Below are positions 800-62,474 of a DNA stretch of 64,000 nt, piece by piece. Numbering within the stretch: position 1 is the first letter of the stretch; every line of letters starts with the position of its first letter. A program made the translations under genes and the position numbers. Source of the stretch: an uncultured Leptospirales bacterium (GTDB lineage Bacteria; Spirochaetota; UBA4802; UBA5550); the NCBI GenBank assembly GCA_964392365.1, contig CAYMPH010000010.1:2146-66145 (forward strand), in the 5' to 3' direction. The notes below the pieces were generated by a model. The model saw nothing but the letters and a program-made list of their open reading frames with translations. It did not search any database and was not told the origin of the DNA.

Positions 800-803
800 A
801 ATA

Positions 804-1748: not shown

Positions 1749-1763
1749 TTTATTTTTCCCGTA

Positions 1764-2051: not shown

Positions 2052-2083
2052 ACTGCTGCCTTTTTCCTTAGTTAAAATTTTGA

Positions 2084-2453
2084 GGGGAACTATAAGCCGA
2101 ATTCTGTTTAAACAGTCATCTATCTTGTCTTTATGTTGCCATAAAGATCTTTGCGACCTACCCTCAGCCTCGAGCGGGCAGCTCTCAAACGGCTGATGCT
2201 TGGCCTTGCACCGGATGGGGTTTACACTGCCGTTTTCATTACTGAAAACGCGGTGAGCTTTTACCTCGCCTTTTCACCTTTTCCACTTCACCCCCCAGCC
2301 CCCCTCTCAGGGGGGCTGGGGGGTGAAGTGGTAGTTTGTTTTCTGTTGCACTATCCGTCGCTTCACAGCGCCCGGGCGTTACCCGGCATCCTGCCCTCTG
2401 GTGTTCGGACTTTCCTCACTGCCTGTTACAGCATGCGCGACTGTCCGTTCCCC
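2084..2453 (-). ncRNA. rnpB: RNase P RNA, bacterial type A
   Basis: The minus strand reads GAGGAAAGUCCGAACACCAGAGGGCAGGAUGCCGGGUAACGCCCGGGCG (P4/CR-I-III), AGUGCAACAGAAAACAAAC, GUAAACCCCAUCCGGUGCAAGGCCAAG and a 3' ACAGAAUUCGGCUUAUAGUUCCCC (CR-V). The 5' GGGGAAC pairs with the 3' GUUCCCC to form P1. The region is a GC-rich island of ~370 nt. Confidence 0.9.
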
Positions 2454-2589
2454 TCATATGTAAACATACAAATCTATACAAATCAAGTCAAGATACTTTA
2501 TTTTAATAAAAGAGAATTTTAAATCTATTTTATTAAACCAAAATTTTATTGACACCCTAAATAACGATATAAAATATGTATTATATTCC

Positions 2590-2664
2590 GGTGAATGTAG
2601 TTCAATGGTAGAGCCCTGGATTGTGATTCCAGTCGTTGCGGGTTCGAGCCCCGTCATTCACCCA
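2590..2664 (+). tRNA. tRNA-His (anticodon GTG) with an encoded G-1
   Basis: Cloverleaf with an extra 5' G and acceptor GTGAATG/CATTCAC. The anticodon loop is TTGTGAT and the T-loop is TTCGAGC. Confidence 0.9.
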
Positions 2665-2680
2665 TTTAATGTATAATAAA

Positions 2681-2708
2681 AAAACCTTCCATCAGCGAAG
2701 GTTTTTTT
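2681..2708 (+). terminator. rho-independent terminator after tRNA-His
   Basis: aaaccttc-catcagc-gaaggttt hairpin followed by a T-run. Confidence 0.6.
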
Positions 2709-2796
2709 ATTCCTTTATTTCCCTTGACATTTATTCAATAAATGAACCTTATATTTAAATAATATAGATTAAATTTTATTTAAAAGGAGATTTTAA

Positions 2797-3042
2797 ATGA
2801 AAAAGTTTATTTTCGGATTAACCGCATTATTATTTTCTGTGTCTATAATGACAGGATTTGCTGCCGGTGGAAGTACCGGATATGAGGGAAGCGATAAAGA
2901 AGCTGACAGAAAAGCTGCCATTGCAGAAAAAAAAGCTCATAAAAAAGAAAAAAAAGCTGAGATTAAAAAGAAGAAAGCTGAAGAAGCTAAAAAGAAACAT
3001 TTGAAAAAAGAAAAAACTGAAAATAAATCTGATGGACAATAA
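2797..3042 (+). CDS. small secreted lysine-rich protein (KKEKK/AEEAKKK repeats), hypothetical
   Basis: An AGGAG RBS lies 8 nt upstream. It has a signal peptide and a low-complexity Lys/Ala/Glu tail. Confidence 0.5.
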   Translation: MKKFIFGLTALLFSVSIMTGFAAGGSTGYEGSDKEADRKAAIAEKKAHKKEKKAEIKKKKAEEAKKKHLKKEKTENKSDGQ

Positions 3043-3061
3043 AATTTAATAATTATTTTCA

Positions 3062-3106
3062 ACTGGTATCTGAAGTTTTTTTTAAAATGAAGATACCAGT
3101 TTTATT
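3062..3106. terminator. bidirectional hairpin between convergent genes
   Basis: actggtatc ... gataccagt stem followed by TTTTATT. Confidence 0.5.
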
Positions 3107-3116
3107 GATAAACTTT

Positions 3117-4097
3117 TTACCGGCTTTTAATTGTAATTACAGGCGCATCTTCCCCTTCAATACTTTTTAAAATACTGAGAGGATCATCTTTTATTATAAA
3201 AAATCTCATCCCGTAAATATACGGCCTTTTTTCTTTTATTCTTTTTGCATTTTTTGAAAGCTGATCATTCATGTAATCTGTAAAAAGCTCCTTTTTCACT
3301 TCCGGTATTCTTGAATGAATTATATATACTTTATCATTTTCAACCAAAGCAAAACCTATATGTCCAACCCATTTTTTTTCTGACTGATTTGTTCTAATTA
3401 AATTAAATAAATAGATATTATTTTTACCTGTGTTTTTATCAAATAATATAAGTTTTGTTAAAATTTCAGAAAATTTACTTTGATGAAAATATGATATTTT
3501 AACTTTTTCATCAGGTACATTTCCATTTCTGCTGTTCATTGAATAAAATAAATTTCTTTCGACGGTTTGTTCGTAAAGCTCCAGATTTTCTTTTGAAAGT
3601 CTGCTATTGATATCTTCAATAATCCATGAATTATTTTTTTCCCAGTCTGCTTCGAAAAAATGATTTCTTGATTCCCATCCTATCAGTCCGTTTTTATATC
3701 GTATCCGCTGTAGTGTTACAAAATAAGATCTCCATGTATCTGACATGGATAAGGCTATTGAATTTTCAACGAAAGTTACACAGTCGCTTTCATCAAGATT
3801 GTACATCGTTTTTTCAGATGGGATTTCAATAGGAAATTCCCCTGTAGTTCCATCAACGTGAGGCTGCCCGATCTGTTTTTCCGCTATTATCTTCAATCTT
3901 TTTGAAAATATTTTTTCATTTTTAAATTGCCATGATAAATACTTGTTTATTTCTTCCGGTTCGAGATCGAATATCTGCTTTTCGAGTATATTCTCCGGAA
4001 AAATATCATTATTGTCTGAGTATTGTTTTTTTTCAGTTTTCGAACAGGAAAAAATAAATAACTGAAGAAACATGATAATAATTAAAATTTTTTTCAT
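3117..4097 (-). CDS. lipoprotein, hypothetical
   Basis: Lipobox FIFSCSK after a hydrophobic N-terminus. 326 aa. Confidence 0.55.
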   Translation of the reverse strand: MKKILIIIMFLQLFIFSCSKTEKKQYSDNNDIFPENILEKQIFDLEPEEINKYLSWQFKNEKIFSKRLKIIAEKQIGQPHVDGTTGEFPIEIPSEKTMYNLDESDCVTFVENSIALSMSDTWRSYFVTLQRIRYKNGLIGWESRNHFFEADWEKNNSWIIEDINSRLSKENLELYEQTVERNLFYSMNSRNGNVPDEKVKISYFHQSKFSEILTKLILFDKNTGKNNIYLFNLIRTNQSEKKWVGHIGFALVENDKVYIIHSRIPEVKKELFTDYMNDQLSKNAKRIKEKRPYIYGMRFFIIKDDPLSILKSIEGEDAPVITIKSR

Positions 4098-4117
4098 TGA
4101 AGATTGCCCGTAGTATT

Positions 4118-4687
4118 TTATTTTATTGCTGAAGTTCGGCCCAGTTCAAATGCCTGTTTTTTAATATCTTCATTTCCTGAAATTTCTGCTTTTTCTGATG
4201 CTGATGCCATAACAGCGCCAAGCCAGGTCATCTTTGTCATGTCTACAGTTGATTTAAAGCTGTGAACTATCGGATCAGCAGTTTTTACGTTAGTATCCCC
4301 GCATACTGTAATAAGGCCGATTCGCTTTCCTTTCATTTTCGGATAATAAGCTTTCTGCCATCTCCAGTCTGCATCAAATAAAGCGCACCATCTGTCCAGA
4401 TAGGCTTTCATCTGTGAAGTCATTGACCAGAAATATACAGGCACGCTGTGAATAATGACATCCGCATCAAGTATCTTTCCATGTATTTCCTGCATATCAT
4501 CTTTGATTGCGCAGATGCCGGTCTCATTGCATTTTTTGCAATCTTTGCATCCGGATATTTTTTTTCTGTCCAGTATGATTTTTTCAACTTCCGCACCTGC
4601 TGATACGGCACCTGATAATGCCTGATCCAGCAGTATATCACTATTACTGCCTACCCGCGGACTTCCCATTATTCCAAGAATTTTCAT
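4118..4687 (-). CDS. flavodoxin-like NADPH-dependent FMN reductase / iron-sulfur flavoprotein (Isf-like)
   Basis: N-terminal MKILGIMGSPRVGSNS flavodoxin-like P-loop and a CKDCKKCNETGIC cysteine cluster. Confidence 0.6.
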   Translation of the reverse strand: MKILGIMGSPRVGSNSDILLDQALSGAVSAGAEVEKIILDRKKISGCKDCKKCNETGICAIKDDMQEIHGKILDADVIIHSVPVYFWSMTSQMKAYLDRWCALFDADWRWQKAYYPKMKGKRIGLITVCGDTNVKTADPIVHSFKSTVDMTKMTWLGAVMASASEKAEISGNEDIKKQAFELGRTSAIK

Positions 4688-4892
4688 TTTATTCCTCCGA
4701 GTAATTTAATTTATATCGATTAAAGTTTTGATTAAACCCTTTTTTGTCTTTCCGGTTTTGCAGCTTCAATTCGTGCAAATATCTGAATCTCATATATTAT
4801 ATATTCTCTATGAGATTCCGGCATTCCCCTATCGCTCCAGCCGGAATGACAAAGAACTAATTCAATCGTTAACTGCTATACTAAAAAATTTT

Positions 4893-5501
4893 TTAGGCTT
4901 CAGAATCAATGTCATATATGTAAATGTCGCTGATATCTTTAAAATCATTGTTTTTATATCTGATATTAATCTTTACTGCTTCTTCTTTTGCTTTCATGTA
5001 CACAGCTGAAACTTTATCCTTTAGCATTTTTCCGTATTTTATATAATATCTCGATAGAAAAAAATATATAAGAGCACCCTCGAGATTTGAGATATAATTT
5101 GTGTCCCAGTTTTCTTTAATAATTCCCGGATTTCCTATAACCAGAGAAAATGGAGGAACAACTGTACGCGGTTTCACATTAGCGCCTGCAGCCACAATAC
5201 TCCCCCTGCCTATTACACAATCATTCTGAACTGTTGAATTCATGCCGATTACAGAGCAGTCTTCAACTGTGCTTCCATGGATTACTGCTCCGTGTCCTAC
5301 TGTAATAAAATTTCCGAGTATTGCAGGATGCCCCTTATCGCCGTGAATTACGCAATTATCCTGAATGCTTGAATAACATCCGATTGATATGCTGGTAAGG
5401 TCTGCCCTGATTACCGCACCGGGCCAGATTGATGAGTTTCCGCCTATTGTTACCTCTCCAATGACTGCAGCTCTGGGATCAATATAAATTGTTGAATCCA
5501 T
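4893..5501 (-). CDS. gamma-carbonic-anhydrase-like hexapeptide-repeat (LbH) protein
   Basis: Repeated [LIV]G-x4 hexapeptides: IGEVTIGGNSSIWPGAVIRAD...VIHGD...ILGNFITVGHGAVIHG. Confidence 0.65.
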   Translation of the reverse strand: MDSTIYIDPRAAVIGEVTIGGNSSIWPGAVIRADLTSISIGCYSSIQDNCVIHGDKGHPAILGNFITVGHGAVIHGSTVEDCSVIGMNSTVQNDCVIGRGSIVAAGANVKPRTVVPPFSLVIGNPGIIKENWDTNYISNLEGALIYFFLSRYYIKYGKMLKDKVSAVYMKAKEEAVKINIRYKNNDFKDISDIYIYDIDSEA

Positions 5502-5505
5502 ATTA

Positions 5506-6411
5506 TTAAGCTTTTTCCAGAGCTTTTATTATATCGAATATTATTTCATTGCATGGAGTTGGGACTGAATTCTGTCTGCCATAATCAATTATTTTACCAT
5601 TAATATAATCAATTTCAGTATTTCTGTTGTTTTTAATATCCTGATACATGGAGCATAGATTTGATGAAGTTTTTCTGCATACTTCCATTGTCAGGCTGAT
5701 CATTTCTTTTTCGTTTAATTTAATTTTTATTGAATTTGCAACATTAACCGCTTCGTGAATAATTTTATTTTGAATATCAAGTGAATATTTATTATTCAAT
5801 ATCTCACCGTTCGGTATTGAGAGAATTGATGCAACCGGATTTATGCCCGCATTTATTATTGCTTTAATCCATACTGCTTTATCCGGTTTATCTGTATAAT
5901 TTACTGAGAATCCTGCGTTTTTAAGAATTTCTATAACCTGCATAACATTATTTTTTTGTTTCCCGCCAATTGATATTTCGCCGTCACCGCCGAATTTTAA
6001 AGAATTTAAATCAGATTTTGATGCACCATATGAAGTTGTCCCATATACAATACTGTCTTCATTGAAATATTTCAATAGTAGTTCTTTATTTCCGATACCG
6101 TTTTGAAGTGAAACAATAATACAGTCTTTATCCAGATAATTTATTATTGATTTTACAGCTTCTTCTGTTGAATAGCTTTTTATAAAAAGAAAAATTATTC
6201 TGCAGCCTGCAAGCACAGCCGGATTAGTATCTATATTAATATTATCATTTTTAATCATTTCACAATCGTTTATTACTTTAATTCCGGAATTTTTTATGGA
6301 AGAAACTATATCCGGGAATTTTTCATAAATGACAAAGTCAATTCCGCTTTTTTTTAAAAAAGAAGCTGTCAGAAGCCCCATTGCTCCTGCGCCGATAATT
6401 GCCGGTTTCAT
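5506..6411 (-). CDS. panE: 2-dehydropantoate 2-reductase
   Basis: N-terminal [12 protein letters not shown] Rossmann motif and an ApbA/KPR-like length and C-terminal domain. Confidence 0.65.
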   Translation of the reverse strand: MKPAIIGAGAMGLLTASFLKKSGIDFVIYEKFPDIVSSIKNSGIKVINDCEMIKNDNINIDTNPAVLAGCRIIFLFIKSYSTEEAVKSIINYLDKDCIIVSLQNGIGNKELLLKYFNEDSIVYGTTSYGASKSDLNSLKFGGDGEISIGGKQKNNVMQVIEILKNAGFSVNYTDKPDKAVWIKAIINAGINPVASILSIPNGEILNNKYSLDIQNKIIHEAVNVANSIKIKLNEKEMISLTMEVCRKTSSNLCSMYQDIKNNRNTEIDYINGKIIDYGRQNSVPTPCNEIIFDIIKALEKA

Positions 6412-6630
6412 GTATTTATCCTGGTAAAAATATTAATAAAGAGCTGCAATGATTTATTTTCTGTTTCAATATAATCTTTGTCAATAATTATAGTTTATTA
6501 ATCTTCTGATATCAGTCTACCTTTACCTGAAATAACAGATAAACCTTTAAAAAAAATATTGATTTTTTACTCTAACCAGATAAAAATAAAAAAATATTAA
6601 TTCAATAAAATATAATCTGATTTTTTAAAA

Positions 6631-7290
6631 ATGACTGCAATAATAAAAAATAATGAATATCTTCCTTTGAAAAGAATACAGACTGATTTTTATTTGAATC
6701 GTCTTAAAGAATTTGGAATTAATTCTTCCTGGTCGGTAGGATGGTCAGATTATCTTCAACCTGTTCTTTTTGAAAAATTAATTGGAATTTTGCCGGGTAT
6801 ACCTGAGAGTAATCCGGTATCTCTGCTCGATGTAGGATGCGGACTTGGGGATCTTATTTTCTACCTGAAACAGCATGGCTACAGCAGTATCCGGTATAAC
6901 GGAATTGATATTATACCTGAAATGATTTATTACGGCAAAATAAAATATCCCAGAGCTGATCTGAAAATTGCGGATTTTTCAGATCAGACTTTTATCAATG
7001 AATATGATTATATTGTATGCTCAGGTGCATTAAATATTCTCGCTGCTAAAGACCGGTCCGGTCATGAAAAATATGTTATGGATTTTATAAAAAAAATGTT
7101 TGCACTTTCAAAAAAAGGCTGTTCATTCAATCTTCTTGCAATTGAAGGCAGACAATATTTTACGGATGATAACAGATTTTACTATGCAGAAAGGAACAAG
7201 TTCATTGAATTCTGTTCCACTATTACCTCAAAAACGTATATCGATTTCAAAGATAATGATTTTATTTTTACAATATTTATGTATAAATAA
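6631..7290 (+). CDS. class I SAM-dependent methyltransferase
   Basis: LLDVGCGLGDL motif I. Confidence 0.6.
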   Translation: MTAIIKNNEYLPLKRIQTDFYLNRLKEFGINSSWSVGWSDYLQPVLFEKLIGILPGIPESNPVSLLDVGCGLGDLIFYLKQHGYSSIRYNGIDIIPEMIYYGKIKYPRADLKIADFSDQTFINEYDYIVCSGALNILAAKDRSGHEKYVMDFIKKMFALSKKGCSFNLLAIEGRQYFTDDNRFYYAERNKFIEFCSTITSKTYIDFKDNDFIFTIFMYK

Positions 7291-7481
7291 AATAATTCAA
7301 TTTTTTATAATCTTTATCTAATCTGATTTTCATTTGTTTTTAAAAGCTGCATTATTGAAAAATACTCTTGAATTCGCTTGTTATATAATTCAATTTGTCT
7401 TTTCTCTAAAAGATTTTCTGATTAATTTATAATAAAAATCGTCAAATCAAATAATAAGAAAATGGAGAACGGATATTTTTC

Positions 7482-8732
7482 ATGATATCAGTTAAAAAAG
7501 ATAAATATTTCACGGTAAACGCTTTCGGGATTTCAGCTGTAGAAGTTCTTTGGGGACTCGGATTACCTGTAATAATCGAATCAACTTTTCTTCAGCTGTT
7601 TTTAAAAAGCCTTGGTGCATCAAATCAAACCATTGGATTAATACCGGCGATCATGGGAACAGGGATTGCCATATTTTCACTAATGTCAGCATATCTGACT
7701 TCTCACCTTGTGCATAAACGGCGGGCAGTAATTTTATCGCATATTCTGACCAGCATCCCGATTTTTACTTTCGGCGTAATTTTATTTATTACAGGACAGA
7801 CTCCATATACGATTACTTTATTTTTATTATTTTATGTTCTCGGCTCTCTCGGTCTTGGTCTTACAATTCCGATCTGGCAGAATTTTATTGTGAAAATATT
7901 CAGCGAAAGCAGAACAATACCTGCTATTTCCATCATGATGCTTAGCCAGACTGCAGCTAAACTTGCCGGCAGTTTTTTAATACTACGTTATGTTGAGCAA
8001 TTTTCATTTTCTCCCAGAAGCGCAAGTATTGTTTTTATTATTCTTGGTATATTGTTTTTTACAGGATCATTCTTTTTTCTTTTTGTAAAAGAAGTCCAGT
8101 CAGATGAAGATCTGATTGAAAAAGATGCTCACAGCATTATGACACTTTTGCAGGCAGTTATAGACATTATACATAATAAAAAATTCATGCTATATCTTCT
8201 GGCCACAGTCGAAGCTTTTACCTGTATAACAATAATTTCATTTTATGCGAATTATGCTGTTGAATACCATTCAATATCCAGATCGCTTGCTGCAGGAATG
8301 TTTGTTGGATTTATCTATGCAGCAGGAATAATAATGAATATACTATTCGGATGGTTTAATTTTTTAAGTTTGAAAAATAAATTAATTATCTCAAGAATAT
8401 CTGCATTATGTGCTATAGCGGTTCTTCTAACCGCAAATTCCATTACAGGATTTCTTGCAACCAGTTTCCTTCTTGGCAGCTCACGTTCTTTAAGCAGTCT
8501 TTGTTTTTCTCCGGCAGTAAAAAAGCTTTCATGCTCTAATGACGCCACAGACTATTTTGCAGTTTCACAGGCTATAACACTTCCATTTAGTTTCGGAATA
8601 CCTTTTGCAAGCGGCTATTTTCTTGACAGCTTTTCAAATCTTGGAATTCATTCATATACCATATTATTCTCTATCTGCGGATTACTTGTATTAATAAGCC
8701 TGGCTTGTATTGTTTTAATTGATTTTAGTTAA
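7482..8732 (+). CDS. MFS transporter
   Basis: 416 aa with ~12 predicted TM helices. Confidence 0.6.
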   Translation: MISVKKDKYFTVNAFGISAVEVLWGLGLPVIIESTFLQLFLKSLGASNQTIGLIPAIMGTGIAIFSLMSAYLTSHLVHKRRAVILSHILTSIPIFTFGVILFITGQTPYTITLFLLFYVLGSLGLGLTIPIWQNFIVKIFSESRTIPAISIMMLSQTAAKLAGSFLILRYVEQFSFSPRSASIVFIILGILFFTGSFFFLFVKEVQSDEDLIEKDAHSIMTLLQAVIDIIHNKKFMLYLLATVEAFTCITIISFYANYAVEYHSISRSLAAGMFVGFIYAAGIIMNILFGWFNFLSLKNKLIISRISALCAIAVLLTANSITGFLATSFLLGSSRSLSSLCFSPAVKKLSCSNDATDYFAVSQAITLPFSFGIPFASGYFLDSFSNLGIHSYTILFSICGLLVLISLACIVLIDFS

Positions 8733-39378: not shown

Positions 39379-39453
39379 ACTAAATTTAGAATTTTTCTTT
39401 ACATTTTAAATGTACAACAATTATAATGTTTATGTTGAAATAATAAAATCTAT

Positions 39454-39527
39454 CGGGGCGTAGCGCAGTCAGGTAGCGCACATGACTGGGGGTCATGTGG
39501 TCGGAGGTTCAAATCCTCTCGTCCCGA
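39454..39527 (+). tRNA. tRNA-Pro (anticodon GGG)
   Basis: Acceptor CGGGGCG/CGTCCCG, anticodon loop CTGGGGG and T-loop TTCAAAT. Confidence 0.85.
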
Positions 39528-39970
39528 AATGCATAAACAGATATTGCTTAATATACAGTGATTTAGAACAATAAACTCAAATAATAAACAAATCAATAGC
39601 AAAAAACTCTAAAAATTATAGAATTATATTAAATGTTATAGAGTTACATAGAGTGATTTACATTTTTATACAACGTTTATACAACGATTTTCTTTATACA
39701 AATTTGAATAATAAGTCAGTCAACCCTCCCCTTTTTTCATTATTAATAATTTCTTATTTCAGAAAATATTTCAATTTTATTTTATAATGAATTCATAACC
39801 GTCAAGCATACTTGGGATGTTCTTATCGAAAATTTGAAATTTAAACGTAGAAATAAACTTTCTGATACTGAACAGTTATTGGATTTATCTTTCAGAGCCA
39901 ATAGGGTTAAGGTTAAGAAACATTTTCAGCATTTTGATTGGGATAATCGAGTTAACAAGAATATATGGAA

Positions 39971-40074
39971 GATTGCGAGGTGGAAATAAAAAAACCCCTG
40001 AAGATTTTCAAGGGTTTCGTTTGCTGATAAAAATACATTATTTTTTGATTTAAAATTTGTCAATAAAAAAATTC
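39971..40074. repeat. copy 1 of an ~100-bp intergenic repeat (hairpin terminator plus a ttgctgataaaa...tttgtcaat promoter-like segment)
   Basis: About 80% identical to 40545..40647. It contains an aaaaaacccctgaag..tcaagggttt hairpin. Confidence 0.6.
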
Positions 40075-40544: not shown

Positions 40545-40647
40545 AATTGAGAGGTTGAAATAAAAAACCCCTGATGTTTATCAAGGGTTTTCTTTGCTGA
40601 TAAAATTACAATATTTTCAAGTTTAAAGTTTGTCAATGATAAATTTA
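40545..40647. repeat. copy 2 of the ~100-bp intergenic repeat
   Basis: See copy 1. Confidence 0.6.
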
Positions 40648-45292: not shown

Positions 45293-46192
45293 TCACTCCT
45301 GAATTATATTCTTTTTCAAAAATTCTGAAATATCCATTAGTTCTTCATTTGTTACTATACCATCTTCATAGATTTTTTCTATTTTATCTGAAAGATTTCT
45401 AAGAACGGGTTCATTAGTTACAGGACAAAGAGTAAGCCATTTCTGAAGATAAAAAAGTTCTTTTGCATTTACTTCACCATCAGCAATAATTCCGGAACAG
45501 ATTCCTTGAAGTTCTTTTAAATATAGATTTATCTCTGTTTTACTTTTCTTTTTGCCTTCAACTTTTTTCTTTTCTGGTTCAGTAGTAATTCCTTTTATCT
45601 GCTCCAGGCATTTAATTACAGGTGTCTTCTTTGAAAAGTTTGAAATATTTTCAAAACCAAATATCCCTGCTTTCTCTAATCTTTCTCGGTAAACGGTTCT
45701 AAATAGATTCACAACACTTTCAACGTCATTAAATGCCTTATGAGACTTGCCGCTTGATAGATTAAATTTATTTTTTAAAGTTTCAAGCTGGTAATTTTCT
45801 GTTTCGTCTATTACTCTTCTTGCAAGAGTTAAAGCACAAAATCCTCTTTTACCTGTAACAGGTACCCCCAATCGGTTATATTCTGGTTCTAATACCCTGT
45901 TCCAGTCAAATGAAATGTTATAAGTGACTATTGGATAATCTTTTGCAAAATCATTAAATTCTTTGTGAGCCTTCAAAGGATTCTCACCGAGTTTTCTTAA
46001 ATATTCTCTTGAATATCCGTGGAGAGATTCGGCCATTGGTTCAATTTCAACATCGTGGTTTAAAAGTATTCTAAATGGCTCACCGGCAGGTTCCCAACCA
46101 ATCATTTTTTGAGCTGCAATTTCAACACAGTAAATAGGTAAGCCCAGCCCACTTGTTTCAGTATCAACAATCACCCAGATTTCCTGATTCAT
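45293..46192 (-). CDS. DEDDh 3'-5' exonuclease (DnaQ/RNase T-like) with a ~130 aa C-terminal extension
   Basis: Exo I VIVDTETSGL, Exo II YNISFDWNRV and Exo III HKAFNDVESV. Confidence 0.65.
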   Translation of the reverse strand: MNQEIWVIVDTETSGLGLPIYCVEIAAQKMIGWEPAGEPFRILLNHDVEIEPMAESLHGYSREYLRKLGENPLKAHKEFNDFAKDYPIVTYNISFDWNRVLEPEYNRLGVPVTGKRGFCALTLARRVIDETENYQLETLKNKFNLSSGKSHKAFNDVESVVNLFRTVYRERLEKAGIFGFENISNFSKKTPVIKCLEQIKGITTEPEKKKVEGKKKSKTEINLYLKELQGICSGIIADGEVNAKELFYLQKWLTLCPVTNEPVLRNLSDKIEKIYEDGIVTNEELMDISEFLKKNIIQE

Positions 46193-50227: not shown

Positions 50228-50277
50228 ATTATCCCTAAACATAATTGATATATTATATTAGTTATTATTATATTTTT
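50228..50277. repeat. ~50-bp direct repeat, copy A (attatccctaaacataattgatatattatattagttattatt...)
   Basis: 42/42 identical, plus ~8 more with one indel, to 52153..52200. Confidence 0.8.
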
Positions 50278-52094
50278 GCTGATTTAAGATATAATTGCAA
50301 ATTAAGTTTTAAATTTTTTTTAACAACAGAATAGGAATTTTCCTGTAAATTTTTATCAACAAACTTAAAAGTAAATTGTTCTGAAATATGAGTTGGAACA
50401 TAAGTTGCTCCTGATTTATATTTATAAATATCAAAAAGTTCTTGAATAATATATTTTTTTGCATCATATAAGCTAATTGTAAAATTATTTTCTTTTTTAA
50501 TTTGCTTAAATTTCTTTATAGAACCAAAGTAGAAATAGTTTTTTGCAAAAACATCTCTAACTTCATTATGTGTTTTTGGAATTCTTGTAAAATTACTTTT
50601 CCTTTGATAGAGATAATTACCGAAAAATAACATCATTATTCCTGGCAATTCATCTAACCATTTCTTTTTCCAATCTACTCTTTTTATATGCTTTTTTACA
50701 ATAACATTTGAAACTCTTCTGATAAGTTTTGAAATATCTTTAACAAAACGGGTATTATCAAAACTAATATCTTCTTTCTTTGTATAAGAAGAGTTATCTA
50801 CTGCGTTTTTCCCAAACTCATAAGCTTTCTTCCATTCATTTTCAAAATCTTTTGTCAAGTCTCTTGAACCATTGTTACAGGATTTTAATATTGATTTAAA
50901 TTTTTCCTTATTTCCTTTTACGTGTCTATAAAGTATAGCAGCTTTGCCTTCTTTATAAAGAATTTGGTATTTTTTCTTTCTTCCTATTTTCATATTTTCA
51001 ATAGAAAAATTTGAATTAGATGATATTTTAGATGATTTTGTGAAAACATCTATTCCCCAGTTCCAGTTGTTCCAGTTTGATTTTTTATTTGAAGATTTTT
51101 CTTCTGGATTAACTGCTTCAATTACTTCAGGAGGAGTTGCTGATTCTTTTACAGATTTCTTTGCTTTTTCTTTTTTTGCATCTTCTTTTTCTTTCTTTGC
51201 TTTTGCTTTTTCTGAAACTTCAGCTAATTTTGATAAATCTACAGCATTTTTTTTAAAATCAAAACCCTTTAGATATTTAGCCAAGCCAGTAAAATCTTCA
51301 TAAATAATAAAATCACCATTTTCATCAAGATAGCCATTATGATATTTCAGGGAGAATGGAAGCCTCTGTGTTCTGTTTTCAATTCTGAAATCGCAGGATA
51401 AATTCTCCGCAAGTTCAAAAAACTCATCAAGTAGATGTAACAGCTCAGAAGAAGGAACTTCATTTGTTCTAAATATAGCGTGAATATGCCCTTCAATGGA
51501 GATTCCGTAATACATTGGAAGTTTATTCTGGAAATATTTTTTTCGCAGCCTTTTAAATATCTTATGCCCATTTTCCATATCAATATCGATTTGAATCATA
51601 GGGAATTTAAGATTTTGCGATAATCCGACTGTATTAAACAAATTTTTTGAATAGCTAAATACTTTACGGGTTTTATCATCAAAATTATTCCAGAATTTCT
51701 TTAATTTATTATATACTACAGGCTTGGAATATAGAGATAGCAATTGCTGTTTGATTCTATTTTCAATCGATTCAGGTGGAATTTTTCTTACAATGCCATT
51801 TTTTTCTTTTACCCTATAAAGATTTAATTCCACTTTAAGCCAAGCTGGTTCCAATTCATAACCTTCTTTTGTTGGTTTTGATTTATATCTAAAGCGGTGC
51901 ATATATGTTGTTCCTTGATTAAAATCAAATCCCAATAATTTCAGAGCAAGAATAAATTTAGAAAAACACCTATTTGTATCTTTTCTAATTTTATCTCTCA
52001 TTTCTTTATTATCCTGGGGTATTATTGCTTTGAATTTAAATAATTTTTTTACAGTTACCTTGCTGTTCCTTTTATTTACTGGTTTCTTTTTCAT
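50268..52094 (-). CDS. putative archaeo-eukaryotic-primase (AEP)-like replication/primase protein
   Basis: 608 aa with QIDIDMENGH (hhhDhD-like), GISIEGHIHAIF (sGxHhH-like) and a Lys/Glu-rich linker. This is a motif-level call only. Confidence 0.35.
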   Translation of the reverse strand: MKKKPVNKRNSKVTVKKLFKFKAIIPQDNKEMRDKIRKDTNRCFSKFILALKLLGFDFNQGTTYMHRFRYKSKPTKEGYELEPAWLKVELNLYRVKEKNGIVRKIPPESIENRIKQQLLSLYSKPVVYNKLKKFWNNFDDKTRKVFSYSKNLFNTVGLSQNLKFPMIQIDIDMENGHKIFKRLRKKYFQNKLPMYYGISIEGHIHAIFRTNEVPSSELLHLLDEFFELAENLSCDFRIENRTQRLPFSLKYHNGYLDENGDFIIYEDFTGLAKYLKGFDFKKNAVDLSKLAEVSEKAKAKKEKEDAKKEKAKKSVKESATPPEVIEAVNPEEKSSNKKSNWNNWNWGIDVFTKSSKISSNSNFSIENMKIGRKKKYQILYKEGKAAILYRHVKGNKEKFKSILKSCNNGSRDLTKDFENEWKKAYEFGKNAVDNSSYTKKEDISFDNTRFVKDISKLIRRVSNVIVKKHIKRVDWKKKWLDELPGIMMLFFGNYLYQRKSNFTRIPKTHNEVRDVFAKNYFYFGSIKKFKQIKKENNFTISLYDAKKYIIQELFDIYKYKSGATYVPTHISEQFTFKFVDKNLQENSYSVVKKNLKLNLQLYLKSAKI

Positions 52095-52152: not shown

Positions 52153-52200
52153 ATTATCCCTAAACATAATTGATATATTATATTAGTTATTATTTATTTT
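52153..52200. repeat. ~50-bp direct repeat, copy B
   Basis: See copy A. Confidence 0.8.
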
Positions 52201-52251
52201 TTTAAAAAATAAAAAAGCAGAAAGGGAATTATCCCCCTCTGCCTGGTTTTA

Positions 52252-53170: not shown

Positions 53171-53600
53171 TTGTTATTGTATTTATTCAAACCGTCAATG
53201 TTGACAGTATCTCAAAAACCTTGTTTATTTTTTTCCCGTTTCAAGTTGTCATATTGAACCTCCTGTTTTTTCCCTGGATATTAATTAGACTGAACAAAAC
53301 GTGCTTTTTATTCCCACTTTTTTGGTTTGGGTTAATTTTTGTTATTTTTTTTAAAAAAAGTAAAAATTGAGGATAAAACTTTTACTTTAAATGGGGTTTG
53401 ATACTGAATTGAAATTTAAAGTTTTAAAATGAGTTAGTTTCAAGTCGTAATTGGAATAGAAAATGGCTGAATTCTCTTCTATATATTACATTTTTATTAA
53501 AAAAATGAAGAAAATATTACTATTTGACAATATTTTAATCACTCGTTAAATGTAAGCATATTAAGACAATAATTTTTATATATGGATAAACTTAATATCA

Positions 53601-54128
53601 ATGGATAATGACAAATTTTTTAAAGAATACCATAAATATATAAGGGCTCTCGTAATTAAATTTTCAAAAAATTCAAGAAATTATGATGATATTGAAGATA
53701 TAATTCAAGGTGCCAATGAAAAATTTCTTAAAGGTGCTCTTGGAAAGTTTAGAGAAGAAAGCAAAATTACAACTTATATATACAGAGTTGTGTATAATCA
53801 CTGGGTTGACTGTATAAAAGAGAAGATTAAAAGAGAAAGAAACGAAGTTTATTCCGATACCATTTTAAATTGGGGTAATATACCTTCCAGTTATAATGAA
53901 GATAATATAGAAAAAAGAGAAATTATTCTGGAAACAATCAATTTTATCAATCCAGATTTAAAAAAAGTAATTGGTAAGCTTTCAATTATAAAAGATAGGA
54001 AACAAGCTGATATAGCTGGAATACTTCAAATAGCTCAAAGTACAGTTTCTAAAAATATTGCAAGTGCAGAGAAAATACTAAAACAAGAAATTATAAAGAA
54101 ATACCCTGATTTAAGAGATAAAATATGA
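53601..54128 (+). CDS. ECF-type RNA polymerase sigma-70 family factor
   Basis: Region 2-like TYIYRVVYNHWVDCIKE and region 4 HTH RKQADIAGILQIAQSTVSKNIASAEKIL. An upstream TTGACA-17-TAAATG promoter is present. Confidence 0.7.
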   Translation: MDNDKFFKEYHKYIRALVIKFSKNSRNYDDIEDIIQGANEKFLKGALGKFREESKITTYIYRVVYNHWVDCIKEKIKRERNEVYSDTILNWGNIPSSYNEDNIEKREIILETINFINPDLKKVIGKLSIIKDRKQADIAGILQIAQSTVSKNIASAEKILKQEIIKKYPDLRDKI

Positions 54129-54682
54129 ATAATATTAGATGCAATGATGAAATGGAGAAGCTTATTTATGCCTATGCTGATGGAACACTCAAATCAGAAA
54201 AAGAAAAAGAAAAAGTAATTTCTCACATTGCAAATTGTGATTCTTGCTTGGATTTAATAGAAACATATTACGATATGCACAAAGAAAAAGAAATTTTAGA
54301 TGATGATAAGAATTGGAAAGATATTCCAATCCACGCCACAGATTACGGAATCAGCGTTCTTGATTCTGAATTATTAACATCAAAATCGAAAATTCAGGTT
54401 TTATCTTCTGGAGATAAGGGATTACCTGTTTCATTAAAACTTCCATTTAACAATGAAGAAATAACTTTAAAATTGATTAAATCCGGTAAAAAAATGACAG
54501 TACAACTCCAGGCACTCAAAGGTGCAAAGAAATATTATTTACTTTATGGAAAAGACAAGTCTATAGCTTCCGAAATTGATGGATTTGTTGTTTTTACAAA
54601 AGTACCGATAAGGTCTTTTATTCTTTCAATTGATATGAAATATTTTATGAGCATTGATGCTTTAAAAGAAAGTGTATTATGA
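54125..54682 (+). CDS. putative soluble zinc-finger (HxxxCxxC) anti-sigma factor
   Basis: N-terminal YAYADGTL...SHIANCDSC motif. Its start overlaps the sigma gene stop (ATGA), and no TM helix is apparent. Confidence 0.55.
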   Translation: MNNIRCNDEMEKLIYAYADGTLKSEKEKEKVISHIANCDSCLDLIETYYDMHKEKEILDDDKNWKDIPIHATDYGISVLDSELLTSKSKIQVLSSGDKGLPVSLKLPFNNEEITLKLIKSGKKMTVQLQALKGAKKYYLLYGKDKSIASEIDGFVVFTKVPIRSFILSIDMKYFMSIDALKESVL

Positions 54683-56297
54683 TATGGGAAGTGTAATTGA
54701 AAAAAAAATTATAAATGAATGGAGAACAATAAAAGACAATGGTGAGAAACGCAAGTTCTATTCAGATAATATTCTTCCAGTAATAATAGAAGTTTTCTCC
54801 GAAGGTATAGAAACAGGAAAGAAAGAAAGAAAAATTATAGCTTACAGCACCCTTATTATTATTTTATCTAATGACGAAAATACCGCTAAAATTCTTTCTA
54901 CAAGTTTAAAAGTTAAAACAGTAATAGTATTTTATACAAAAGAAAAAGAAAACCGATTTAAAAAAAATTTTCATCCTTATCTTTTGAAATATTTTAGCGA
55001 AACATCTATTAAACCAATTCTTCTCGATAGAATAAATCATCAGAATAATATTAAAATTATAAATGAAACTATTAAAAATGTCTCTTTAGAAAAAGGAAGG
55101 ACACTTTGCGATATCACAGGTGGAAAAAAAATTCATTCTGTTCTTCTTGGTATTGCAGCACGGGAATTTAAAATTGACATCTGCTATTTTGATTCAGAAA
55201 ATCTATCAGATAATTTTATGCCACATTTGGGGAAAGAAGTTTTATATATTCACAGAGCCGATACAGGCTCAGTAACTAAAATAGATTCTGCAATTTACTC
55301 TTTACTCAAAATTGGATACAGAAAATTTGATGATTCAAATGAAATTACATATGATATTATTACTAATGATGAATCCTCCAATCTTGGAACAATTAGATTT
55401 AGCGAGGATGATGCCAGAGTATTATCTGAAAAAATAACTGAAAACAATTCAATAATAAATGGAATTATATCAGATGGAAATTCAAATGCAAGGCGAGAAC
55501 TTGTCTCTATTTCAAGAATTATTAAAAGTATTTTAATGTCGCCACCTCTTATTCATCGTATTAGAGAAGATAACTTCAACCGCTTTAAAATTATATTGGA
55601 TGAAGAAATATCAGGAATTCCTTGGGAAATTCCTCTTTCAATGGAGCTAAAAGTTGAACTTCCGATAATCAGAATTCCAAATAAAGTTTATGGGTTAAAT
55701 GAAATCTGCGGATATGAAGAAAATGAGCCTGTTGGTATTCTTTTAATTGAAGGTTCGAGCGAAGGAATTACTGATTTCAAATCATATATTGATAGTGCTT
55801 TTGAAATTTGCTCAAGATTTGAAAATTTCTTTTCAATCAAAGCAGAGAATGCTTCTGAACTTAAGATGTATTTAACTGATAGAAATTGTTTTAAGGTTAT
55901 AATTTATTACGGGCACGCAGAATATTCAAACGAAAAAATGACAACTGGTTGGAAATGTATTGATGGCTCTTTCTTTGGACCTGATTCCTTTAATGTAATG
56001 AGTGGACGGCGTAGTGGAATAATTATCGCAAATGCTTGCGAAAGTGCAAGAAGTGCACCGTTTTTAAAAAATTCGTTTCCATTTGCAACATTATTAAACG
56101 GCTTCAGTACATTCATCGGAACAAATTGGCTTCTTGAAGTAGAAAGAAGTTCAATATTTATAAATACAATGCTTGAAAATCTTATAAAAATGGAATCAAA
56201 GCCTTCCGATTGTTTTAATATAGCAATGAAAACACTCGCTGAAAAATATGGAGCAGCTGATTTGTCAAAATATAACATTGTTTATTACGGTAAATAA
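54672..56297 (+). CDS. two-domain protein: an N-terminal Rossmann-like CARF-like sensor domain and a C-terminal CHAT/caspase-like His-Cys protease domain
   Basis: DITGGKK matches the CARF [DN]x[ST]xxx[RK] signature. The C-terminus has IIYYGHAEY (His) and IIIANACESARS (Cys; CHAT-like ...SAC[EQ][ST]). Its start overlaps the anti-sigma gene end. Confidence 0.5.
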   Translation: MYYDMGSVIEKKIINEWRTIKDNGEKRKFYSDNILPVIIEVFSEGIETGKKERKIIAYSTLIIILSNDENTAKILSTSLKVKTVIVFYTKEKENRFKKNFHPYLLKYFSETSIKPILLDRINHQNNIKIINETIKNVSLEKGRTLCDITGGKKIHSVLLGIAAREFKIDICYFDSENLSDNFMPHLGKEVLYIHRADTGSVTKIDSAIYSLLKIGYRKFDDSNEITYDIITNDESSNLGTIRFSEDDARVLSEKITENNSIINGIISDGNSNARRELVSISRIIKSILMSPPLIHRIREDNFNRFKIILDEEISGIPWEIPLSMELKVELPIIRIPNKVYGLNEICGYEENEPVGILLIEGSSEGITDFKSYIDSAFEICSRFENFFSIKAENASELKMYLTDRNCFKVIIYYGHAEYSNEKMTTGWKCIDGSFFGPDSFNVMSGRRSGIIIANACESARSAPFLKNSFPFATLLNGFSTFIGTNWLLEVERSSIFINTMLENLIKMESKPSDCFNIAMKTLAEKYGAADLSKYNIVYYGK

Positions 56298-56390
56298 AGA
56301 GAAATTTTAGTAAAATATTTTGTTTACCAAAACTATTAATTCTTTAAAAATATTACTTGACAATCGACAACTAATATGCTTAAATAAACT

Positions 56391-56618
56391 ATGGCACAAG
56401 TAAAGATTACAGAGCTTACTTCCTTTTTATCTGTTAGACAAACGGCACAAGAACTTGGATTTTCTAAAGAAGGTATTCGTAAATTAATTCATTCCGGAGA
56501 AATATCACCGGTAAGCAAGGTAGATGATTTTATTCTGATTCCTTCCAAGACGATACAGATGTTTAAAGAGAGTCGAAGAAAACAGAATAATCCTGATAAT
56601 AGATATAAAAAGTTATAA
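56391..56618 (+). CDS. excisionase/AlpA-like HTH DNA-binding protein
   Basis: LSVRQTAQELGFSKEGIRKLIHSGEI helix-turn-helix. 75 aa, directly upstream of the integrase. Confidence 0.55.
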   Translation: MAQVKITELTSFLSVRQTAQELGFSKEGIRKLIHSGEISPVSKVDDFILIPSKTIQMFKESRRKQNNPDNRYKKL

Positions 56619-56702: not shown

Positions 56703-57575
56703 ATGAAAAATAAAAGCATAATATCTATTAATCACAGTAATAAAATCTATTCCCTTTCCTTCGAAGGTTTAAACAGCAACTACAAAAATGATGTTGAAAT
56801 CTTCAACAGATTTGCAGATGGAAACCCGATTACAGCCAACCTTATAAGTGATTTTTTCATCTGGAGAGAAAAGAATGTATCACTTTCAACCCTTCAACGA
56901 AATAAAGCAGCCATAAAACAGGCTTTAAAGCTTTCAATGGGCCAAGGTGCAAAGCTTGGACAGATTGCTCATATAGATGCTTTCTTTAAATCTATAGAAC
57001 AGGGTAAAGGAACTTGTAATAATTCTATAACAGAAAATAAAGTTTTAACAAAAAACCAATTGAAAGAACTTATAGCCAAATCCGGTTTCAAAACAGGTCT
57101 AATAATTCAAGCTTTATATCAAACAGCTACCCGTGTAAGTGAATTATGTAATATAGAACTTAAACGATGCAAGATAATTCAAGATGAAAGTTCTTTTCCA
57201 TATATTCGGATTAAAATTTTCAGACAAAAAACAAACAGTTATGCTGATGTATTTATGGATTATAATCTGTTTGAAAAGATTAAAGCAGCCTACTCCGGAA
57301 AGAAATACCTATTCGAGAAAAACGGAAAGCCTATTTCAAGATTTACAGTACACAGTTTGGTAAAAAGAGCCGGAGCGAAGATAGGAAGAAATGATATACA
57401 CGCCCATACCCTACGCCATTCGTGGGCCTCAAATGCAATTACAACCCTTGGGCTTTCTAAAGTTTCTAAATACCTTTCACACTCATCTCCGGATGTGACT
57501 GCTCGCTACTACTTGCACGGAAATGCGTCCGCTGAAGAAATTATGACGGTAAATAAACTGGAAAATGCTGAATAG
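56703..57575 (+). CDS. tyrosine-type site-specific recombinase/integrase
   Basis: Catalytic residues ATRVSEL (Arg), HAHTLRHSWA (H-x-x-R) and TARYYLH (Tyr). Confidence 0.8.
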   Translation: MKNKSIISINHSNKIYSLSFEGLNSNYKNDVEIFNRFADGNPITANLISDFFIWREKNVSLSTLQRNKAAIKQALKLSMGQGAKLGQIAHIDAFFKSIEQGKGTCNNSITENKVLTKNQLKELIAKSGFKTGLIIQALYQTATRVSELCNIELKRCKIIQDESSFPYIRIKIFRQKTNSYADVFMDYNLFEKIKAAYSGKKYLFEKNGKPISRFTVHSLVKRAGAKIGRNDIHAHTLRHSWASNAITTLGLSKVSKYLSHSSPDVTARYYLHGNASAEEIMTVNKLENAE

Positions 57576-61091: not shown

Positions 61092-62474
61092 TTAATATTT
61101 CAATACTCTATTCATATGTGTAATATAAACATCAGAACCAAATACAGCCACAGACGAAGGGTCATATAAGCAATCTAAATCTGTATATGAAAAATTATCA
61201 TCTGTTGTGAAAACTCCATATTGCCCATACACCCTTGTTGCTGTAGTGCTTGTCCCTAAATAATACAATACTCGATTATTTCCTCCTACGATAAAAACAC
61301 CAGATGAATCTACTGCAATCCCTTTTGGGTTATTCAAGCTATTTGCACTTATTCCTCCATTATTAACAGTATTCGTAGTATAAATACCACCTTGTCCATA
61401 AACCCTTGTAGCCGTTGTATTTGTTCCTGAATAATATAATGCTCGATTATTGCCTTTATCAGATATATAAACTCCTCCGGCATCTGCGGCTACTCCATTT
61501 GGGTAATTTAAACTATTTGCACTTACACCGCCATTATTAGCAGTATTCGTAGTATAAATGCCACCTTGTCCATAAACTCTACTTGCTGTTGTACTCGTTC
61601 CTGAAAAATATAATACTCGATGATTACCATTATCTGCAATATATACTCCTCCGGCATCTACTGCAATACCTTGTGGGGCATTCAAGCTATTTGCACTTAC
61701 ACCGCCATTATTAGCAGTATTCGTAGTGAAAATACTACCTTGACCATAAACCCTTGTAGCTGTTGTGCTTGTTCCTGAATAATATAATACACGATTATTG
61801 CCAGAATCAACAATATAAACTCCTCCGGCATTTACTGCAACACCACTTATGGTCAAGCTATTATTCAAGCTATTAGCACTTACACCGCCATTATTGGCAG
61901 TTGCACTTGTAAAACTTCCTAATTGACCATAAACCCTTGTAGCTGTTGTGCTTGTTCCTGAATAATACAATACTCGATTATTGCCATCTGCAATATAGAT
62001 TCCTCCGGCATCTACTGCAACACCTGTTGGTGAAGCCAAGCTATTTGCACTTATACCACCTTCATTTCCAGTATTGGTTAAACTGCCATATACCAAGATT
62101 GCAGTTGTATTTACAACCACCGATACTGTATAATCCTGTGTCGTTGTATCTGGAGATGTTACGGTATAGGTTTGAGCGGCGGTGAAATTATTCCCCACAC
62201 CCGATGCAGGGTTAACACTCACTCCCGTAATTGTAATTGAAGGAACTAATGCAGTTAATACAGTTTTATGCGGAACTCTGACAACAATTGTATGAGTTCC
62301 TTCAGTAATAGTTGTTCCTATAGAACTCGGAAATGTAAAAGCTGTTATCGCTTTGTCAGACGAAACCGCAGGTCCTGTTCCACCAGAAGTAGTATTATCT
62401 ACTGTACCAGGACATCCAGATAATGTAATTACAATAAAAATTAAACCTATAGTATTGATATATAGTTTTTTCAT
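61092..62474 (-). CDS. secreted/lipoprotein NHL-repeat beta-propeller protein
   Basis: LSGCPG lipobox and six ~45-aa repeats of the form TTATRVYGQGGIYTTNTANNGGVSANSLN.P.GIAVDAGGVYIADNGNHRVLYFSG. Confidence 0.65.
   Translation of the reverse strand: MKKLYINTIGLIFIVITLSGCPGTVDNTTSGGTGPAVSSDKAITAFTFPSSIGTTITEGTHTIVVRVPHKTVLTALVPSITITGVSVNPASGVGNNFTAAQTYTVTSPDTTTQDYTVSVVVNTTAILVYGSLTNTGNEGGISANSLASPTGVAVDAGGIYIADGNNRVLYYSGTSTTATRVYGQLGSFTSATANNGGVSANSLNNSLTISGVAVNAGGVYIVDSGNNRVLYYSGTSTTATRVYGQGSIFTTNTANNGGVSANSLNAPQGIAVDAGGVYIADNGNHRVLYFSGTSTTASRVYGQGGIYTTNTANNGGVSANSLNYPNGVAADAGGVYISDKGNNRALYYSGTNTTATRVYGQGGIYTTNTVNNGGISANSLNNPKGIAVDSSGVFIVGGNNRVLYYLGTSTTATRVYGQYGVFTTDDNFSYTDLDCLYDPSSVAVFGSDVYITHMNRVLKY

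Follow-up and report, generated by a model that had tools for sequence, protein, structure and literature searches.

Three adjoining genes on a 64,000-nucleotide (nt) stretch of DNA from an uncultured Leptospirales bacterium (GCA_964392365.1, contig CAYMPH010000010.1, positions 2,146 to 66,145 of the forward strand; this whole stretch is called the window here) raise the question of whether a protease that senses a nucleotide second messenger could control a sigma factor of the extracytoplasmic function (ECF) type by cutting its anti-sigma factor. An earlier note on this DNA had proposed such a wiring by analogy with the CalpL system, in which CalpL cleaves CalpT, releasing CalpS (PMC11229360; bioRxiv 10.1101/2023.06.23.546230). 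We found that the third gene encodes a CARF nucleotide-sensor domain fused to a CHAT protease with an intact His-Cys dyad, and that the sigma factor, anti-sigma factor, and CARF-CHAT families travel together. We regard it as fairly probable that the cassette is a module in which a signal passes from a second messenger through the protease and the anti-sigma factor to the sigma factor; the steps of ligand binding and anti-sigma cleavage we infer from sequence, structure prediction, and comparative genomics.

Three abutting genes encode a sigma factor, an anti-sigma factor, and a CARF-CHAT protein

The three open reading frames (ORFs) have exactly the coordinates given in the earlier note:

53601..54128, plus strand: ECF (group IV) sigma factor, 175 amino acids (aa), from the ORF list, TIGR02937, and Pfam
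54125..54682, plus strand: soluble zinc-binding anti-sigma (ZAS) factor with a C-terminal immunoglobulin (Ig)/fibronectin type III (FN3)-like beta-sandwich, 185 aa
54672..56297, plus strand: CARF-CHAT protein, 541 aa with a GTG start; an alternative ATG at 54684 gives 537 aa

The sigma and anti-sigma genes overlap by 4 nt (ATGA), as previously described. The 11-nt overlap described for the third gene exists only with the GTG start; with the ATG at 54684, where the identical database protein P0001 (537 aa) begins, a 1-nt gap takes its place, and the genes abut with either start.

The product of the first gene is an ECF sigma factor, as had been read from the sequence. TIGR02937 (sigma70-ECF) matches residues 4–163 of 175 with 68.9 bits against a cut-off of 42.9 (E = 3.7e-19), Pfam Sigma70_r2 is above its gathering score, Sigma70_r4_2 is weak, and the profile of the sigma family matches the structures of RpoE, SigH, and SigW, with E. 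coli RpoE (1or7) at E = 5.3e-14.

The third protein joins a CARF sensor domain to a CHAT protease module

The features of the 541-aa protein are as follows:

54726..55250, plus strand: CARF sensor domain, residues ~19–193
55110..55130, plus strand: D147-I-T-G-G-K-K153, CARF ligand-loop motif (invariance in 10 family members)
55269..56294, plus strand: CHAT (caspase-like, clan CD) protease module, residues ~200–541
55914..55916, plus strand: His415, putative catalytic histidine, in YYGHAEY (invariance, model, and alignment)
56037..56039, plus strand: Cys456, putative catalytic cysteine, in IIIANACES (invariance, model, and alignment)

Nineteen CARF/Csx1 models of PADLOC match residues 19–193, the best at 2.1e-10 and 1.2e-9, and the NCBIfam Csx14/Crn1 matches to the protein are below their cut-offs. 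In an exhaustive search of 1.84 billion representatives with a family profile built from ten CARF-CHAT members, the N-terminal third of the profile brought up Csm6 proteins, and the C-terminal two-thirds brought up hundreds of canonical CHAT (PF12770) proteins, including those with TPR-CHAT, cyclase-CHAT, FHA-CHAT, and kinase-TPR-CHAT architectures. Precomputed PF12770 matches exist for eight of nine CARF-CHAT homologues, and distant members of the same architecture score 43 and 61.5 bits with this model. When compared with CHAT and other clan CD peptidases, the protein scored 16.5 with SAVED-CHAT, 16.3 with separase, 15.6 with gingipain, 14.4 with Csx29, 14.3 with DdvA, and ~12 with caspases. 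The N-terminal domain has a Rossmann-like CARF fold and the C-terminal domain a caspase/separase-like fold. The CHAT assignment is thus made because the family profile, the homologues, and the fold point to it, and both halves have the significant profile and fold evidence that had been sought for them. Pfam found no TPR in the protein, and there was no match to Lon or SAVED in Pfam, PADLOC, or NCBIfam.

The CARF ligand-loop motif has the form [DN]x[ST]xxx[RK] and follows a core strand. The DITGGKK sequence, to which attention had been drawn for its fit to this signature, comes right after beta-strand 143–147 in the model, and its residues D147, T149, G150, G151, K152, and K153 are invariant in the ten family members. 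The suggested His/Cys dyad proved equally well conserved: in the CHAT part of the family, G414, H415, C456, S458, A459, and R460 are invariant, and in the model H415 ends strand 407–413 and C456 ends strand 450–455, as in caspase-fold enzymes. In a phmmer alignment with the type III-E CHAT protein 8d9h_E, C456 aligns Cys-to-Cys and H415 lies at most one residue from the His.

The three families stay linked in rearranged loci

Full-length CARF-CHAT proteins are rare, with ~18–20 clusters at 50% identity in the profile search, and the contig titles almost confine the family to Spirochaetota/Leptospirales. We compared 21 distinct loci, namely the window and 20 related loci, and detected their sigma and anti-sigma genes by hidden Markov models built from the respective alignments. 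A homologous sigma gene is present in 17 of the 21 loci and an anti-sigma gene in 14; among the four loci with neither gene, three are short or truncated contigs, and the fourth is L001 (a 9.6-kb contig). The absence of such pairs beside homologues, which had been named as a reason to abandon the proposal, was therefore not what we saw: most loci carry the homologous pair.

The layout of the loci varies. The genes are colinear in the window, L007, L021, and L026; CARF-CHAT is convergent with the pair in L003, L011, L012, L016, L025, and L027, and divergent in L019, L020, L023, and L024. The CARF-CHAT proteins of the relatives are 29–40% identical to the window protein, and the only genes common to the window and the related loci are those for the sigma factor, the anti-sigma factor, and CARF-CHAT. 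That the linkage is kept despite rearranged layouts and this level of identity points to functional partners rather than to neighbours by chance. The window cassette is a minimal colinear version, located on a low-GC block that ends in xis and integrase genes. In L026 (positions 229–7864), the sigma/anti-sigma pair and CARF-CHAT are set apart by seven genes of the same strand, among them Shosta-like ShosT/ShosA and subtilase-like genes, and this locus looks like a defence island.

The anti-sigma factor carries an invariant leucine in a flexible loop

The second gene encodes a soluble anti-sigma factor that, according to its model, is composed of an N-terminal zinc-finger domain and a C-terminal Ig-like domain with a flexible loop between them. 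Its zf-HC2 match in Pfam (25.8 bits) is above the cut-off (22.2 bits), and no transmembrane helix was found (the highest 19-residue Kyte-Doolittle mean is 1.4), in agreement with its earlier description as a membrane-free HxxxCxxC anti-sigma factor. The AlphaFold model, built on nine homologues with a predicted local distance difference test (pLDDT) value of 72.6, has a three-helix bundle at residues 8–54, a hairpin at 64–78, a low-confidence loop at 87–97, and a beta-sandwich at 102–179. As expected of a ZAS factor, H-x3-C-x2-C lies within the N-terminal helical anti-sigma domain by both Pfam and the fold. The 4-nt gene overlap and the conserved pairing suggest that the protein binds and inhibits its cognate sigma factor.

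We aligned 19 anti-sigma factors from CARF-CHAT loci and from loci of other phyla that encode CHAT proteins with tetratricopeptide repeats (CHAT-TPR). Only H34, C38, C41, L93, and F157 are invariant across the 19 sequences. They include the following two features:

54224..54247, plus strand: H34-x3-C38-x2-C41, zinc-binding motif (invariant in 19/19 aligned anti-sigma factors)
54383..54415, plus strand: loop residues 87–97, KIQVLSSGDKG, with invariant Leu93, the predicted CHAT cleavage site (pLDDT <50)

The loop around L93 reads KIQVLSS in the window anti-sigma factor and PAPVLR in the CHAT-TPR set. Because L93 is invariant in a flexible loop wherever this anti-sigma factor meets a CHAT protein, whatever the sensor, the loop is a candidate cleavage site. 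A comparable cut is known in type III-E systems: the site at which Csx30 is cleaved is a small flexible loop in the C-terminal domain, the ECF-like CASP-sigma is held by the N-terminal domain, and the N-terminal fragment left by the cut is unstable (PMC10028731). Cleavage by craspases takes place after Leu or Met, as summarised in PMC11506125. By this analogy, we would place the CHAT cut in the loop after Leu93 only tentatively, as a real possibility that is on balance somewhat doubtful.

The zinc finger itself offers another route to sigma factor release, and ZAS redox inactivation during phage infection has been discussed (PMC11506125). An RsrA-type anti-sigma factor would free the sigma factor on oxidation, and CARF-CHAT would be a separate effector that shares the defence neighbourhood; the invariant HxxxCxxC motif and a weak match of the window anti-sigma factor to the RsrA model TIGR03988 (E = 0.0011) speak for it. 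HxxxCxxC is also present in many ZAS factors without a redox-sensing role, and oxidation would leave the CHAT linkage, the conserved C-terminal Ig-like domain, and the loop motif unexplained. We consider this explanation very unlikely.

The same type of anti-sigma factor recurs with CHAT-TPR proteases

A module of an ECF-type sigma factor, a zf-HC2 anti-sigma factor with an Ig-like C-terminus, and a CHAT-TPR protease (~720–740 aa) recurs in Omnitrophota and Planctomycetes:

L028, 77–3647: sigma/anti-sigma/CHAT-TPR module
L030, 59–3666: sigma/anti-sigma/CHAT-TPR module
L032, 4603–8224: sigma/anti-sigma/CHAT-TPR module
L035, 8443–12055: sigma/anti-sigma/CHAT-TPR module
L036, 5157–9126: sigma/anti-sigma/CHAT-TPR module

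For these distant CHAT proteins without CARF, a sigma gene precedes all five, and a zf-HC2/Ig-like anti-sigma gene is detectable in three of the five. With at least 303 clusters of the anti-sigma factor, the family is far larger than that of CARF-CHAT. An independent member on a 106-kb contig has the order sigma, anti-sigma, CHAT-TPR in a housekeeping neighbourhood, and the context of L036 is housekeeping as well, not defence-related. The modules share with the window cassette the gene order and the anti-sigma type, including the invariant H/C/C, L93, and F157; they differ in the sensor, which is a C-terminal TPR array in their case and an N-terminal CARF domain in the window protein. We found no earlier description of the sigma/ZAS-Ig anti-sigma/CHAT-TPR module in the literature.

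A possible reading is that the sigma factor, the ZAS-Ig anti-sigma factor, and CHAT make up a general chassis for signalling whose sensor can be exchanged, with TPR in Omnitrophota and CARF in Spirochaetota. The occurrence of this anti-sigma type with CHAT-TPR in hundreds of Omnitrophota sequences also suggests that CHAT cleavage of soluble anti-sigma factors may be a wider mode of ECF activation; the main text of the paper that reclassified the ECF factors (PMC7826278) does not deal with caspase-like cleavage of such factors.

Relatives of the cassette lie beside type III CRISPR genes and two other recurrent partners

Type III CRISPR genes stand beside CARF-CHAT in 7 of the 20 related loci. 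Cas10 (9e-99) and RAMP/Csm3-type genes are ~2 kb from CARF-CHAT in L025, and in L023 CARF-CHAT directly adjoins Csx1 (2e-131) and a CARF7-RelE/DUF2103-type protein (1.6e-101). Csx1 and Csx20 are found in L011, a Csx1-like gene (in BLAST cluster C8 with the Csx1 genes of L011 and L023) and a Cas_APE2256 gene in L002, and Cas1/Cas2 in L003, L008, and L027. No Cas7-11 was present among the neighbours scanned, and no PCaspase homologue was seen.

Given these neighbours, the CARF domain would most simply be a sensor of cyclic oligoadenylate (cOA), and the second-messenger part of the proposal thereby gains new support from relatives beside Cas10, Csx1, Csx20, another CARF effector, and Cas1/Cas2. 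One and the same cOA almost always serves the effectors encoded together in a locus, and cyclic tetra-adenylate (cA4) is the messenger of Csx1 and Cami1 (PMC11229360). Since relatives of the cassette occur with Csx1 and a Cami1-like CARF7-RelE protein, cA4 is our first guess and probably the ligand of CARF-CHAT. Cyclic hexa-adenylate (cA6) may be an alternative, as in sequence the CARF domain is closest to Csm6-type proteins.

Two further partners recur in the related loci, and both are absent from the window:

L003:7883–9925, L008:3853–5883, L011:5019–7097, L016:1948–3978, L025:11559–13601, L027:6202–8286, partial in L013 and L017: DUF3800 protein
L003:2171–5611, L011:269–2830, L020:2687–6223, L022:1705–5070: Dna2-like nuclease-helicase

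The DUF3800 protein (~680 aa, with the domain at its N-terminus) follows the sigma/anti-sigma pair in eight loci, convergent with CARF-CHAT, and is a possible fourth component or sigma-controlled effector. In L008, an 81-nt gap (5883–5964) separates the sigma and DUF3800 genes at the place where relatives have the anti-sigma gene. The Dna2-like protein, a PD-(D/E)xK nuclease fused to a superfamily 1 (SF1) helicase (1121–1178 aa), adjoins CARF-CHAT in five loci.

This arrangement bears on a rival explanation, in which the sigma/anti-sigma pair only drives the transcription of defence genes, CARF-CHAT among them, the anti-sigma factor is inactivated in some other way, and CHAT cuts other targets, such as host proteins (abortive infection) or the DUF3800 or Dna2-like partners. 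CARF-CHAT is outside the sigma operon, convergent or divergent, in most loci, and the recurrence of the two partners just described would suit this explanation, as would two precedents: SAVED-CHAT acts on another protease and not on an anti-sigma factor (bioRxiv 10.1101/2023.06.23.546230), and DdvS/DdvA is an ECF pair that controls defence-island expression (PMC11506125). However, the window, L007, L012, and L019 hold the triad without DUF3800 or helicase, the anti-sigma family stays with CHAT across sensors and phyla, including housekeeping loci without defence genes, and the anti-sigma factor keeps an invariant Leu in a disordered loop. We therefore think it unlikely that the pair serves transcription only.

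A proposed route from second messenger to sigma factor

If the cassette is a second-messenger-activated protease module, the anti-sigma factor would hold the sigma factor at rest. A cyclic oligoadenylate made by the Cas10 of a type III CRISPR system would bind the CARF domain, and ligand binding would activate the CHAT domain, which would then cut the anti-sigma factor in its conserved loop, within this scheme probably after Leu93. The remaining sigma-binding fragment would be lost or degraded, and the freed sigma factor would redirect RNA polymerase to its regulon. The note that proposed this CalpL-like logic had also named findings that would speak against it, such as missing CARF or CHAT profile hits, a dyad or ligand motif that is not conserved, or homologues that never accompany a sigma/anti-sigma pair; each of them was looked for and none was encountered, and the interpretation is supported.

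Several observations nevertheless weigh against it. On the window protein itself, the Pfam matches to Csa3_N (17.8 bits against a gathering score of 27, E = 0.0035) and CHAT (12.3 bits against 24, E = 0.11) are both sub-threshold. L001, the contig of the nearest homologue, has no sigma or anti-sigma gene over its 9.6 kb, and L008 has the sigma gene without an anti-sigma gene. The DUF3800 (eight loci) or Dna2-like (five loci) partners could be the real substrates or outputs, or additional ones. The anti-sigma model is only moderately confident, as its pLDDT of 72.6 indicates, and the invariant Leu93 could instead serve structure or binding. No target promoter specific to the sigma factor was found, and the conserved box upstream of the sigma gene is of housekeeping type. 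Finally, the 64-kb window contains no cas gene, no Cas10, no CD-NTase or other cyclase (57 ORFs), and, as had been remarked before, no CRISPR array, since no CRISPR-like interspaced repeat was detected; the source of the signal must thus be elsewhere in the genome.

The upstream promoter box is of housekeeping type

Upstream of the sigma gene, the following element can be read:

53524..53552, plus strand: promoter-like element, TTGACA, 17-nt spacer, TAAATG

A simple promoter scan gave no more hits than expected from shuffled sequence, and it skipped this box because of the G at the end of its −10 hexamer. In 15 of 16 loci, one TTGAC[A/T/G] box and no more precedes the conserved sigma core at a distance of 60–144 nt, where ~0.1 would be expected per search window. 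The conserved form, TTGACA-N17-TAnnnT, is of the housekeeping sigma-70 type, and similar boxes precede many genes of the island. No ECF-type autoregulated promoter was found. Given the housekeeping-like box, expression of the cassette is probably constitutive, and the ZAS domain would hold the sigma factor.

A TTGACA-N18-TAAATA box at 56357–56385, in front of the xis gene, resembles the sigma promoter box. The regions 53512–53552 and 56347–56385 have in common AATATTAC-(0-3 nt)-TTGACA-N17/18-TAAAT. AT-rich DNA may have produced this resemblance by chance, or the two genes may share a control element; the resemblance is weak evidence, as this type of box is common on the island.

The proposed logic of the cassette is that of known systems, with different parts

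That type III CRISPR immunity can act through protease-to-sigma signalling has been recognised recently, from CalpL/CalpT/CalpS and from Csx29/Csx30/CASP-sigma. Like the window cassette with its predicted cOA sensor, the CalpL system joins a cOA-sensing domain to a protease whose gene is accompanied by those of a soluble anti-sigma factor and an ECF-type sigma factor, and it is a type III CRISPR accessory, as are the relatives of the cassette. It differs in that CalpL combines a SAVED4 sensor with a Lon protease, whereas the window protein combines CARF with CHAT; moreover, the ZAS and Ig-like anti-sigma factor has no sequence or fold match to CalpT, and the window copy has no CRISPR neighbourhood. 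The type III-E craspase follows the same working logic: Csx29 cleaves Csx30, relieving the inhibition of the ECF-like CASP-sigma (PMC10028731). However, Csx29 has TPR and is activated by target-RNA binding of Cas7-11, with no second messenger, while the window protein has CARF in place of TPR, no Cas7-11 was seen, and the ZAS-Ig anti-sigma factor matches Csx30 in neither sequence nor fold.

Two related cases are the SAVED-CHAT/PCaspase/PCc-sigma system of a Haliangium type III-B locus (bioRxiv 10.1101/2023.06.23.546230) and DdvA/DdvS of Myxococcus (PMC11506125). The former shares a cOA-activated CHAT domain, which for the window cassette is a proposal, but its sensor is SAVED (cA3, filament-forming), and its substrate is a second protease that cuts the sigma factor itself. 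The latter shares the combination of ZAS, CHAT, and ECF; in DdvA, a transmembrane ZAS and a periplasmic TPR-CHAT reside in one protein, for which autoproteolysis and RseP have been proposed, whereas in the window cassette the anti-sigma factor is one soluble protein and the protease, with its cytoplasmic CARF domain, is another. Membership in the CalpL/T/S, craspase, or SAVED-CHAT systems was rejected, as their defining sensor, protease, or substrate features are not found here, and membership in DdvA/DdvS was rejected because the window anti-sigma factor and protease are separate and soluble.

The phrase "CARF-CHAT" did not occur in the literature searched, and a passing mention is possible in the 2020 CARF census, which was outside the search. 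The text and supplement of the 2025 CRISPR classification list Lon and caspase proteases as cOA effectors and have no entry that combines CARF with CHAT; recent surveys name SAVED-CHAT and CalpL as protease effectors. The cassette is a rare and apparently undescribed variant of a known defence circuit. The view that a sensor-CHAT protease wired to a sigma/anti-sigma pair is not commonly described has to be narrowed: since the wiring of CHAT to a sigma inhibitor is already known from type III-E (PMC10028731), what is new is the CARF-CHAT fusion and the ZAS-Ig anti-sigma factor, not the logic. The cassette would represent a further, independently assembled solution made of a classical CARF domain, a caspase-like protease, and an ordinary zinc-finger anti-sigma domain. 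Its small, soluble make-up should render it easy to reconstitute, and it yields the testable prediction that the anti-sigma factor is cleaved after the invariant Leu93 in a ligand-dependent manner.

The cassette stands at the end of a low-GC block with xis and integrase genes

The cassette is at the end of a low-GC block (~40–57.6 kb, GC 24–31%) that also carries RadC, helix-turn-helix (HTH) regulators, a DEDDh exonuclease, a transposase-like HTH protein, and a 608-aa protein without assignment. Its surroundings include the following genes:

56391–56618, plus strand: xis-like HTH_17 gene (Pfam HTH_17, 3.2e-7)
56703–57575, plus strand: tyrosine integrase (Pfam Phage_integrase, 7.6e-19)
39453–39528: tRNA-Pro(GGG), 14 kb upstream of the operon; the low-GC block begins shortly after it

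The xis and integrase genes are directly downstream of the cassette on the same strand, which confirms their reported position next to the operon, and they are conserved in none of the related loci. The further description of the region as a tRNA-associated island holds in part: the low GC content and xis/int agree with an island, while the tRNA gene is 14 kb away and no att-type direct repeat of at least 14 nt links the tRNA region to the integrase end, so that tRNA-Pro is unsupported as the integration site. Look-ups of two flanking core genes gave no records of an empty site in related strains. Location of the cassette on an integrative island is plausible. Carriage by a phage or plasmid found no support: IMG/VR contained no relative, and a comparison with plasmids gave no DNA match.

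As the copy stands alone on a probable mobile island, one may ask who uses the signal. One answer would be that nobody does: the window copy could be a remnant carried by a mobile element, cut off from its signal and functionless here. The same lack of a cas gene, cyclase, or array within 64 kb, together with the low-GC block and xis/int, would be expected in that case. However, the three ORFs are full length compared with their homologues, every invariant catalytic and ligand-loop residue is kept, the genes abut, and the conserved promoter box is present, all of which makes a dead copy improbable in our judgement.

Alternatively, rather than a defence accessory of the host, the cas-less copy may be a listening device of the mobile element. 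Its CARF domain would pick up the cOA alarm of the host, the anti-sigma factor would be cut, and the sigma factor thus set free would turn on genes of the island. Candidate targets are the xis and integrase genes immediately downstream, and a firing type III CRISPR system could then lead the element to excise itself or to alter its programme. We put this forward as a speculation with a small chance of being right; a general chassis with a swappable sensor would be compatible with it.

Other features of the window

Two pairs of direct repeats were observed in or near the low-GC block. A 50-nt repeat (94% identical; 50228–50277 and 52153–52202) brackets the 608-aa ORF at 50268–52094 (minus strand). 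An 85-nt repeat (82% identical; 39989–40073 and 40562–40646) is located at the start of the block and contains a G+C-rich hairpin (AAAAAACCCCTGAAG...CAAGGGTTT) and a minus-strand TTGACA box. When the window ORFs were searched with PADLOC, capP-like (1.3e-19), capH-like (4.8e-8), and DEDDh (5.9e-20) matches and several HTH-regulator matches were obtained; the DEDDh match is probably the ORF at 45293–46192, which contains an RNase_T domain. At 2077–2456 (minus strand) lies a bacterial RNase P class A RNA (302.7 bits); it overlaps the ORF at 2151–2522, which is thus not a gene. Lastly, a tandem repeat with a 174-nt period (61221–62075; 4.9 copies, 78% matches) is within the 460-aa ORF at 61092–62474 (minus strand), which probably encodes a repeat-domain protein.

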